A DNA stretch of 5,663 nt from a virus (lineage: Duplodnaviria; Heunggongvirae; Uroviricota; Caudoviricetes). Where the stretch lies: positions 1 through 5,663 of IMG/VR virus record IMGVR_UViG_2703718818_000005; one strand, given 5' to 3'. The notes under the pieces were generated by a model. It had not been told where the DNA came from, ran no database searches, and saw only the letters and a program-made list of their open reading frames with translations. The position numbers were made by a program, and so were the translations under genes. Of this stretch, positions 3,088 to 5,663 are shown in pieces (position 1 is the first letter of the stretch; the number at the start of each line of letters is the position of its first letter).

Positions 3088-3117
3088 TTTCGCGGGTCCT
3101 TTCCGGCGATCCGGGCC
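3088..3117. other. cosQ-like cos-proximal segment upstream of cosN
   Basis: TTTCGCGGGTCCTTTCCGGCGATCCGGGCC is near-identical to the lambda right-end sequence TTTACGGGTCCTTTCCGGTGATCCGACAGG that I recall preceding cosN, where cosQ resides. Exact cosQ boundaries are not determinable from memory. Confidence 0.4.
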
Positions 3118-3139
3118 GTTACGGGGCGGCGACCTCGCG
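3118..3139. other. cosN, terminase nicking site; 12-nt cohesive end GGGCGGCGACCT at 3124-3135
   Basis: GTTACGGGGCGGCGACCTCGCG matches the lambda cosN core as recalled, and the 12-mer at 3124-3135 equals the lambda cohesive end. The following ~25 nt (CGCGCGTTTTCACTATTTATGAGATTTT) also track the lambda left end. It sits immediately upstream of a Nu1/A terminase pair. Confidence 0.85.
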
Positions 3140-3174
3140 CGTTTTCACTATTTATGAGATTTTTTGAGGGGGGT

Positions 3175-3183
3175 GGTTGTTGT
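3175..3183 (+). repeat. R3-like repeat GGTTGTTGT
   Basis: Exact 9-mer, about 50 nt to the right of the cohesive-end start, analogous in position to lambda R3. Confidence 0.5.
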
Positions 3184-3233
3184 TTAATTGTTTGGTATAT
3201 CTAATTGATAAGTAAGGTGAAAATAAAATAAAT

Positions 3234-3242
3234 ACAACAACC
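3234..3242 (-). repeat. R2-like repeat, inverted copy (ACAACAACC on the top strand)
   Basis: Exact reverse complement of GGTTGTTGT, 59 bp from the first copy. Confidence 0.5.
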
Positions 3243-3311
3243 TTACGATGTGTTTTGATGTCGTCAATGCGAAAAATGTCAATGATATCAAATGGTTTTG
3301 CAAAAACACAT

Positions 3312-3320
3312 GGTTGTTGT
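3312..3320 (+). repeat. R1-like repeat GGTTGTTGT
   Basis: Exact 9-mer, 33 bp upstream of the proposed Nu1 start codon. Confidence 0.5.
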
Positions 3321-3352
3321 ATCGCTTTTTATCGATGACTTATGGAGAGGAG

Positions 3353-3859
3353 ATGGCCTTTTTATTGAATAAAAGTGATATGGCCTCCTCCATCGGTATC
3401 TCTGTTCAGGCATTTGATAAATGGGGCGTTCCTCCTGTTGAACGTCGGGGGAGGGAAGTTTTATATGACGTTAAAACTGTACTGGAGATAGATCGCGAGC
3501 GGCGACAACACAATCAGAGAACACCTGATGACGGGGGAGAACTGGAGGAAAGGCTGCTTCGGGCCAGAGCTGAACTGACAGAAGAACAGGCTGTAGCTCA
3601 AAAACTTAAAAATCAGGTAACCGAAGGTAAGCTCATTGATTCAGACTTCTGCGTTTTCGCCCTCAGCAAACTGGCGATGGCATTGTCCAGTACGCTTGAT
3701 TCCATTCCGTTATCCATGCAGCGACAGTTCCCGGATTTAACGCCACGTCATATTGACCATCTGAAAACCCTTATTGCAAAGGGCGCAAATCAGTGTGCGC
3801 GGGCAGGGGATAAATTACCGGATTTGCTGGATGAATATATCAGAGCAACAACTGAATAA
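3353..3859 (+). CDS. nu1: Terminase small subunit, Nu1-like
   Basis: 168 aa from ATG 3353, preceded by GGAGAGGAG. Aligns by eye with lambda Nu1: EVLYD, FCVFALSKLAMALSSTLDSIPLSMQRQFPDLTPRHIDHLK versus lambda FCTFVLSRIAGEIASILDGLPLSVQRRFPELENRHVDFLK, and an EYI motif near the C-terminus. The track ORF start at 3248 is an in-frame upstream extension running into cosB; 3335 is another in-frame ATG without a Shine-Dalgarno. Confidence 0.88.
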   Translation: MAFLLNKSDMASSIGISVQAFDKWGVPPVERRGREVLYDVKTVLEIDRERRQHNQRTPDDGGELEERLLRARAELTEEQAVAQKLKNQVTEGKLIDSDFCVFALSKLAMALSSTLDSIPLSMQRQFPDLTPRHIDHLKTLIAKGANQCARAGDKLPDLLDEYIRATTE

Positions 3860-5663
3860 TATGATGGCTGCCGTTTCGGTTGCGCTGCAGCCTCTGGTCA
3901 GAGTTGTACCGATGACGGCAGTTGAATGGGCTGATCAAAATTATTATTTGCCTAAAGACTCCTCATACGGTGACGGCGAATGGAAAACGCTGCCATTCCA
4001 GATCGCCATCATGAACAGCATGGGGAATGATCAGATCCGCACTGTTAATCTGATTAAATCTGCCCGTGTTGGCTATACAAAGATGTTGCTGGGGGTGGTC
4101 GGGTATTTTATTGAGCATAAATCCCGAAACAGTCTGCTTTTTCAGCCCACGGATTCTGCCGCTGAAGATTTTATGAAGTCTCACGTGGAGGCGACGATTC
4201 GGGACGTGGCATGCCTGAAAGATCTTTCCCCGTGGCTGGGTCGTAAACATCGTGACAATACTCTCACGCTGAAACGCTTTTCATCGGGGGTGGGCTTCTG
4301 GTGCCTGGGTGGTGCGGCAGCAAAAAACTACCGTGAAAAATCCGTGGACGTGGTCTGCTATGACGAACTTTCCTCGTTCGAGCCGGATGTCGAAAAAGAG
4401 GGCTCGCCAACCCTGCTGGGGGATAAGCGTATTGAGGGGTCGGTGTGGCCAAAATCCATTCGCGGCTCGACGCCTAAAATCAAAGGCTCCTGCCAGATCG
4501 AAAAAGCGGCCAACGAGTCGGCGCATTTCATGCGTTTTTATGTGCCCTGCCCGCACTGTGGGGAGGAGCAGTATCTGAAATTTGGCGATGAATCCACGCC
4601 TTTTGGCCTTAAATGGGAGAAGGACAGCCCCGAAAGCGTTTTCTACCTCTGTGAACATCATGGCTGCGTGATCCATCAGTCTGAGCTTGACCAGAGCAAC
4701 GGGCGGTGGATCTGTGAAAATACGGGGATGTGGACCCGTGACGGTCTGACGTTTTTCAGCGCCGCGGATAATGAAATTCCGCCGCCGCGCTCCATCACGT
4801 TCCACATCTGGACGGCGTACAGTCCGTTCACCACCTGGGTACAGATAGTCTATGACTGGCTGGATGCACTGAAAGATCCCAACGGCGTGAAAACCTTTGT
4901 GAACACCACGCTGGGCGAGACCTGGGAAGAGGCCGTGGGCGAAAAACTCGATCACCAGGTACTGATGGATAAGGTTGTGCGTTACACGGCGGCGGTGCCT
5001 GCCCGGGTGGTTTATCTGACGGCGGGCATTGACTCGCAGCGAAACCGTTTTGAGATGTATGTCTGGGGATGGGCACCGGGAGAGGAAGCCTTTCTGGTGG
5101 ATAAAATCATCATTATGGGGCGTCCCGATGAGGAAGAGACGCTGTTACGTGTGGATGCGGCGATCAACAAAAAATACCGTCATGCAGACGGAACCGAAAT
5201 GACCATTTCCCGTGTCTGCTGGGACACCGGGGGGATCGATGGCGAAATCGTTTATCAGCGGTCAAAAAAACACGGTGTTTTCCGGGTGCTGCCGGTAAAA
5301 GGCGCATCTGTCTATGGCAAGCCGGTGATCACCATGCCAAAAACCCGCAATCAGCGGGGCGTGTATCTGTGTGAAGTGGGGACGGACACCGCAAAAGAAA
5401 TTCTCTATGCCCGTATGAAAGCCGATCCCACGCCTGCGGATGAAGCCACGTCGTATGCCATCCGTTTTCCTGATGATCCGGAGATTTTTTCGCAGACAGA
5501 GGCGCAGCAACTGGTGGCGGAGGAGCTGGTGGAGAAGTGGGAAAAAGGAAAGATGCGTCTGTTGTGGGATAACAAAAAGCGGCGTAACGAAGCGCTGGAC
5601 TGCCTGGTGTATGCCTACGCGGCATTACGTGTGTCTGTGCAACGCTGGCAGCTTGATCTGGCT
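3831..5663 (+). CDS. A: Terminase large subunit, gpA-like; 3' end beyond the window
   Basis: Open frame from ATG 3831 to the window end with no stop (611 codons). It starts MNISEQQ (lambda A starts MNISNSQ) and contains the P-loop-like KSARVGYTK (nt 4056-4082), VDVVCYDEL, the Cys/His cluster CPHCGEEQYLKFGD...FYLCEHHGC, HIWTAYSPFTTWVQIV and KKRRNEALDC, all colinear with lambda gpA as recalled. It overlaps the Nu1 3' end by 29 nt. Confidence 0.93.
   Translation, partial: MNISEQQLNNMMAAVSVALQPLVRVVPMTAVEWADQNYYLPKDSSYGDGEWKTLPFQIAIMNSMGNDQIRTVNLIKSARVGYTKMLLGVVGYFIEHKSRNSLLFQPTDSAAEDFMKSHVEATIRDVACLKDLSPWLGRKHRDNTLTLKRFSSGVGFWCLGGAAAKNYREKSVDVVCYDELSSFEPDVEKEGSPTLLGDKRIEGSVWPKSIRGSTPKIKGSCQIEKAANESAHFMRFYVPCPHCGEEQYLKFGDESTPFGLKWEKDSPESVFYLCEHHGCVIHQSELDQSNGRWICENTGMWTRDGLTFFSAADNEIPPPRSITFHIWTAYSPFTTWVQIVYDWLDALKDPNGVKTFVNTTLGETWEEAVGEKLDHQVLMDKVVRYTAAVPARVVYLTAGIDSQRNRFEMYVWGWAPGEEAFLVDKIIIMGRPDEEETLLRVDAAINKKYRHADGTEMTISRVCWDTGGIDGEIVYQRSKKHGVFRVLPVKGASVYGKPVITMPKTRNQRGVYLCEVGTDTAKEILYARMKADPTPADEATSYAIRFPDDPEIFSQTEAQQLVAEELVEKWEKGKMRLLWDNKKRRNEALDCLVYAYAALRVSVQRWQLDLA

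Follow-up and report, generated by a model that had tools for sequence, protein, structure and literature searches.

A lambdoid Escherichia coli prophage very probably carries a cosB of the N15 packaging-specificity class in the complex Monarch-type layout

Which DNA a terminase encapsidates depends on its packaging specificity, and so do the prophages, satellites and cos plasmids that a given helper can mobilise. For phage N15, this specificity was described by Feiss et al. 2015 (PLoS One 10:e0141934). Block mutagenesis by Feiss and colleagues mapped the N15 R3 site to bp 48-59 (GAGGTTGTTGTT), and the block mutants GAGGTT->TGTAGG and GTTGTT->TGTTGT lowered the phage yield about 7- and 100-fold, respectively (PMC4669245). 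The cosB of N15 is simple: R3 is accompanied solely by a distant, inverted rR2 located in gene 1 (PMC4669245; PMC9026076). N15 DNA is packaged by neither the lambda nor the 21 terminase (PMC4669245); given that the N15-type terminase packages lambda DNA, the specificity is asymmetric. The Monarch group of N15-like prophages is characterised, in the passages of PMC4669245 that describe it, by three R sites with R2 opposite to R3 and R1, an IHF site in the R3-R2 interval, the same recognition helix as in N15 and the lack of an rR2; that Monarch shares its specificity with N15 is presented in these passages as the authors' own inference. In phage 21, the curated record places R3 at bp 50-65, I1 at 74-86, R2 at 107-122 in the opposite orientation and R1 at 150-166.

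The DNA analysed here, hereafter the window, is the whole stretch of 5,663 nt. Gene annotation and profile matches revealed that it contains the late region of a lambdoid prophage. Its features are as follows, with positions in the window and bp counted from the left cohesive end at 3124.

334-1029: antirepressor gene with a KilAC domain
1376-2143: gene of a D12-class N6-adenine methyltransferase, just upstream of Rz and close to the lysis genes
2152-2628: Rz gene
3094-3100, plus strand: cosQ-like heptamer GGGTCCT (packaging termination signal), the sole GGGTCCT in the window
3124-3135, plus strand: cosN cohesive-end sequence GGGCGGCGACCT, a 12/12 match to the lambda and 21 left ends
3146-3165 (bp 23-42), plus strand: conserved spacer box CACTATTTATGAGATTTTTT between cosN and R3
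3168-3173, plus strand: run of six G directly 5' of R3, the length of which sets the cosN-R3 distance
3171-3185, core 3175-3183 (bp 52-60), plus strand: R3, candidate critical TerS site
3198-3210 (bp 75-87), minus strand: I1, IHF-like site TATCTAATTGATA, which reads TATCAATTAGATA on the minus strand
3232-3244, core 3234-3242 (bp 111-119), minus strand: R2, candidate inverted TerS site, exact reverse complement of the R3 core
3286-3298, plus strand: second IHF-like site TATCAAATGGTTT between R2 and R1, one mismatch to the consensus
3312-3322, core 3312-3320 (bp 189-197), plus strand: R1, candidate third TerS site, direct (accessory in lambda), exact copy
3353-3859, plus strand: TerS gene (Nu1 homologue), 168 aa, PF07471 match
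3831-5663, plus strand: TerL gene (gpA homologue), open to the window end and running off it

An earlier note, made from the letters alone, had reported three copies of a nonamer in this region. Indeed, GGTTGTTGT is present exactly at 3175-3183 and 3312-3320 on the plus strand and as its reverse complement at 3234-3242. The repeats sit between a lambda-type cosN, with the left end at 3124, and the Nu1-family gene at 3353-3859. The conserved repeat unit is longer than 9 bp, about GGTTGTTGTWT. Order, orientation and positions of the subsites fit those of lambda and 21, and the R cores are unrelated to both, which bears out the proposal that the lambda R3-I1-R2-R1 organisation is here combined with a different recognition sequence. 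Given the high A+T content and low complexity of the region, recurrence of GGTTGTTGT by chance in T/G-rich intergenic DNA might be suspected; this was refuted, and we give it practically no credence. About 0.04 exact matches are expected by simple arithmetic in 5.6 kb. With at most one mismatch, the window holds six matches compared with 1.55 +/- 1.33 in shuffled sequence, and 0 of 200 shuffles reach six; moreover, motif, position and spacing are conserved across genera.

On the left of these repeats, the cosQ-like heptamer starts 30 bp before the top-strand nick, which is exactly the lambda distance, and relatives conserve it. The nicks at cosN are predicted at 3123/3124 on the top strand and 3135/3136 on the bottom strand. 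The earlier note had held cosN and the first ~35 nt of the left end to be lambda-identical. This is true of the 12-nt cohesive end; the left end as a whole is only ~84-91% identical, with seven mismatches in bp 1-45 (17, 24, 35, 37 and 42-44), i.e., 38/45 ungapped or 91% by BLAST. Past bp ~45 the cosB has no similarity to lambda, in agreement with the complete downstream divergence that had been claimed. The core of the spacer box, CTATTTATGA, is kept in lambda, 21, N15, the Pseudomonas phages F10 and MD8 and nearly all relatives. The extended form CTATTTATGA(G/A)NTTTT recurs from lambda, 21 and N15 to phages of Pseudomonas, Halomonas and Alteromonas, and is conserved more than its flanks.

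The G run between the box and R3 has five G in most relatives, seven to nine in some and ~15 in contig L043. It differs between otherwise near-identical sequences, the cosN-R3 distance moving by single base pairs. The box-to-R3 distance is 27 in the window; among relatives, it ranges from 25 to 27 and is most often 26. Due to the extra G, R3 is positioned 1 bp past the modal distance and 2 bp past that of N15. Lambda packaging suffers from shifts of more than 1-2 bp (PMC4669245), and the shift in the window is inside the range that lambda tolerates. The displacement of R3 by one G, the prophage-like context and the inserted cargo genes would also suit a relic, in which the layout is real and the function of this copy of cos has been lost with the decay of a defective prophage. 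We consider this unlikely, as neither the Nu1 frame nor any of the cos subsites is disrupted and gpA stays open as far as the window end. In addition, the 6-G variant recurs in three independent contigs (L096, L112 and L151), and 31 complete E. coli genomes contain the cos region with an identity of at least 99%. Over a wider range, the region is present with a coverage of at least 80% in about 220 of the 5426 complete genomes of E. coli, many of them being STEC. In a nearly identical E. coli prophage, the RefSeq start codon of Nu1 is identical. E. coli 2015C-3905 has a near-identical cos region, and Rha-family proteins and proteins with an antirepressor N-terminal domain replace the genes at 334-2143; the neighbourhood is therefore mosaic.

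Between the first two repeats, the IHF-like site that had been pointed out earlier was recovered at 3198-3210 (I1); its minus strand departs from WATCAANNNNTTR at a single position. In strand and location, it corresponds to I1 of lambda and to that of 21, which is at bp 74-86. On the minus strand, the I1 core is preceded on its 5' side by an A/T tract (3220-3233). At the second IHF-like site, AATCA(A/G)NNGGTTT is kept in most of the diverged three-site representatives. The window contains seven matches to the IHF consensus, five of which are inside 3185-3419.

The TerS protein matches Pfam PF07471 with 77.2 bits (cutoff 30) over residues 6-149, and gives a weak but collinear match to the lambda DNA-binding domain 1J9I. 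Its N-terminal winged helix-turn-helix DNA-binding domain spans approximately residues 1-50 (3353-3502). Over residues 1-45, it shares 78% identity with N15 gp1, 33% with lambda and 20% with 21. The N-terminus of N15 gp1, MAVLLNKSDMASSLGISVQAFDKWGV, nearly equals that of the window, MAFLLNKSDMASSIGISVQAFDKWGV, and the recognition helix GISVQAFDKWG is identical in the two. The N-terminal region of Nu1 had been described as diverged from lambda and gpA as much more conserved; the comparison agrees on both counts, since the divergence of the DNA-binding domain (33% identity) parallels that of the repeats and TerL shares 67% identity with lambda gpA. TerL is closest to the phage 21 type (92% to 21 gp2), not to lambda; its identity to N15 gp2 is also 67%.

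The counterpart of the window R3 in N15 is found at nearly the same place. Compared with the mapped N15 R3, GTGGTTGTTGTT at bp 50-61 of the window is identical in 11 of 12 positions, with a shift of +2 bp; in the N15 left end (...ATGAGGTTGTTGTTTAATC...), GGTTGTTGT occupies bp 50-58. Every feature in the published passages on Monarch is present in the window at the level of sequence. No rR2 copy with at most one mismatch was found in the Nu1 gene of the window (3353-3859), and the sole match with two mismatches is at 3845, a long way from where an rR2 would be expected. The likeness to Monarch thus follows from the fit to this description, by which alone the two were compared. Feiss et al. 2015 (Virology 482:260) reportedly display the Monarch sequences. 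Altogether, 3171-3322 is very probably the cosB of a lambdoid E. coli prophage that belongs to the N15 packaging-specificity class and has the complex Monarch-type R3-I1-R2-R1 layout.

This assignment bears on the claim that the specificity differs from that of lambda in the way lambda differs from 21. A different specificity is supported, cosB and the DNA-binding domain being apparently of the known N15 class; the parallel itself needs qualifying, because the N15 relation is asymmetric. Alternatively, the cosB might be interchangeable with that of lambda, the difference in sequence being functionally inconsequential. This appears very unlikely, as the R cores resemble neither CGTTTCC of lambda nor CATGTCGG of 21, and the DNA-binding domain shares just 33% and 20% identity with the respective proteins. 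Furthermore, the published one-way exclusion, in which lambda terminase fails on N15 cos, contradicts functional identity with lambda. The window contains neither R sequences of the CGTTTCC(G/T)TTCT type nor the lambda recognition helix, and neither R sequences of the CATGTCGG type nor the recognition helix of 21.

Two sets of relatives were collected. For the first, termed protein-only, a Nu1 protein scan with one genome per species yielded 26 informative loci at 100 to 34% protein identity, from Escherichia, Trabulsiella, Pluralibacter, Erwinia, Aeromonas, Pseudomonas, Halomonas, Oceanimonas, Marinobacter and other hosts. In this set, 24 of the 26 loci carry GGTTGTTGT without a mismatch and two carry it with a single one, always 25-27 bp after CTATTTATGA. 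The VQAFDKWG helix is invariant among 27 relatives, and VQAFDKWG is also paired with GGTTGTTGT in two isolated phages of Pseudomonas, F10 and MD8. Such joint conservation of helix and DNA motif is what a recognition pair predicts.

For the second set, viral contigs were scanned for the R3...R2 pair, which gave 80 cos-flanked matches, 57 of them unique in a 260-nt interval and 41 unique over the scored cosB span. As exact cores were required by the search, the invariance of the R3 and R2 cores in this set is a consequence of the scan, and only R1, I1 and the spacing count as independent evidence. A gap of exactly 50 bp separates R3 from R2 in 74 of the 80 cos-flanked matches (36 of the 41 unique sequences). 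The I1 core TTGATAA is located at spacer offset 21 in 34/41 unique sequences, and is kept in 10 of 11 diverged representatives with 62-82% DNA identity to the window. R1, which the search did not require, is exact in all 11. R2 and R1 are 78 bp apart, except in one lineage with 66 bp, and the flanks drift throughout. A further 39 pattern matches without cos context were discarded as coincidences in coding sequence, e.g., a family with a 63-nt gap in a membrane-protein gene. Among deposited phage genomes searched with the window cosB, no alignment extended past ~bp 46-69 of the left end, and only that of the N15-like Enterobacter phage MStein-2023a reaches R3; no isolated phage in that collection therefore has the three-site form.

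Other relatives carry fewer sites. In the two-site intermediates (L047/L135, L115, L093, L043, L005 and L011), R3 and an inverted R2 are separated by gaps of 42-59 bp, R1 is missing, the TTGATAA core is often absent, and TerS starts directly after R2. Almost all of the single-R3 relatives (L004, L009-L029) have an inverted copy ACAACAACC with 0-1 mismatch ~200-220 bp downstream. This copy is located in the TerS linker, where it usually encodes KQQP, and its N15 counterpart is at bp 249-260; in L028 and L029, the rR2 DNA motif is retained in a different reading frame. The widespread inverted copies lend sequence-level support to the rR2 proposal of Feiss across a much wider host range. The simple cosB of N15 has been proposed to result from unequal crossing-over in a Monarch-like site. 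As a single R3 with an inverted rR2 is common in hosts ranging from Pseudomonas to Halomonas, the simple form may instead be the ancestral one.

Repeats directly in front of a gene might instead serve its expression, either as operators or as an RNA hairpin that controls Nu1 translation. In favour of the latter, R2 and R1 form an inverted repeat (3225-3242 / 3312-3329; 18 nt, 83% complementary) just upstream of the Nu1 ribosome-binding site. The hairpin arms are invariant, so no covariation backs an RNA structure. In most relatives R3 stands alone, at a distance fixed to cosN and not to the start codon, and mutating R3 of N15 alters the packaging yield (PMC4669245). Moreover, the R3-I1-R2-R1 block is kept in satellite-like elements that have no TerS gene downstream of it. 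A role of the R2/R1 inverted repeat as hairpin or operator was rejected on the grounds that the block persists without TerS and that R3 tracks cosN; we regard an expression function of the repeats as highly improbable.

These satellite-like elements came from the R3...R2 pattern scan, in which 16 of 119 contigs diverge from the window after R1. Nine of the 16 (L049, L061, L075, L084, L087, L089, L091, L120 and L124) encode a convergent RppC homologue of 146 aa, which matches PDB 6HLK with E = 6e-31. The repeats are thus independent of Nu1 expression, the same cosB adjoining an rppC-like gene in place of a downstream TerS gene. In these contigs, exemplified by L049 400-1300, a full N15/Monarch-type R3-I1-R2-R1 cos is present and a terminase gene is lacking. 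A second cos of a different type, with GGTGACACCACCACCAC at the place of R3, lies immediately upstream of rpp on the other strand. The RppC-bearing contigs also carry genes for an integrase, a DUF927 primase, an SSB and capsid E/D-like proteins, and are putative PICI-type satellites. The same arrangement occurs in 34 complete E. coli genomes; CFT073 is not among the genomes listed. For EcCICFT073, cos1 and cos2 have been reported with 'no phage cosB identified' (PMC6739421). We tentatively suggest that such satellites could have two packaging routes, one through a lambda/80-type terminase redirected by Rpp and the other through a direct copy of the cosB of a Monarch-type helper, although the odds are somewhat against this reading. 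If it is true, phages like that of the window would be helpers or victims that need no redirection.

Comparison with the isolated phage PhiR12_1 (PV340549) delimits the part of the window that has been exchanged. The DNA shared with PhiR12_1 and Stx1a-converting phages runs up to 3164 (bp 41), and similarity to PhiR12_1 resumes from 3555 (Nu1 codon ~68) at 85% identity, which places the module junctions at 3164 on the left and ~3555 on the right. PhiR12_1 and the window have a three-repeat cosB in common, as well as the backbone on the left up to bp 41 and on the right beginning at TerS codon ~68 (85-95% DNA identity). It differs in the repeats, which are of the CATGTCCGG type, and in an unrelated TerS DNA-binding domain (VATQTEVARHLSLTDRQLRRLQK...; contig L157, 525-780). 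PhiR12_1 may stand for yet another packaging specificity, one akin to that of phage 21. As cosB and the TerS DNA-binding domain are swapped as a block between 3164 and 3555 in PhiR12_1, the word "cassette" in the earlier note was well chosen. The cosB and the first ~67 TerS codons appear to constitute one exchangeable specificity module on a backbone common to phages of other specificities. In this arrangement, the TerS C-terminus stays with its own TerL, and cosB travels with the TerS DNA-binding domain.

Sequence, layout, conservation, homology and the published mutagenesis of N15 R3 enable us to propose a putative model in which binding, bending and nicking in this prophage are predicted steps. 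By homology to lambda, a dimeric TerS would recognise the GGTTGTTGT core in both R3 and the inverted R2 via its winged helix-turn-helix domains. IHF bound at I1 (3198-3210) would bend the 50-bp spacer into a hairpin, such that both major grooves face one TerS dimer. Anchoring of TerS would then let the 21-like TerL nick cosN 12 bp apart (3123/3124 and 3135/3136). Finally, R1 (3312-3320) would add efficiency, and cosQ (3094-3100) would serve termination.

Finding the N15 specificity in its three-site form in a prophage type that is common in E. coli helps in annotation and in the prediction of cross-packaging. The N15/Monarch-type assignment adds no new principle. Specialists in terminase evolution and in satellites may care about the reach of the VQAFDKWG/GGTTGTTGT pair, the fixed 50-bp R3-R2 spacing and the cassette in Rpp-encoding satellites.

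In summary, the window can be placed among the known systems as follows. Lambda is like the window in the order, orientation and approximate positions of the subsites, in cosQ, cosN and the spacer box, and in the PF07471 family of its TerS; it is unlike the window in the unrelated R sequences (CGTTTCC...) and in a DNA-binding domain that is 33% identical. Phage 21 has the same layout and a TerL that is 92% identical, whereas its R core is CATGTCGG and its DNA-binding domain 20% identical. Judged by the subsite positions, R3, I1 and R2 of the window therefore coincide almost to the base pair with those of 21 and lambda; in contrast, R1 and the start of Nu1 are ~35-40 bp further out than in the plan of these two phages, Nu1 starting at bp 230 compared with bp 191 in lambda. 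N15 differs from the window in having R3 alone with a remote inverted rR2, and no IHF site, R2 or R1, where the window has R3-I1-R2-R1 without rR2. Its cohesive end differs at bp 9 and 12, that of the window being lambda-identical, and outside the DNA-binding domain the two TerS proteins are only ~41% identical. However, N15 shares with the window the R3 core GGTTGTTGT in the same place after cosN, the identical helix ISVQAFDKWG and 78% of the DNA-binding domain. From the Monarch group, as portrayed in its published description, no difference was found. The reading of this locus as a distinct recognition cassette was thus right in kind, and such a cassette had already been described in 2015.
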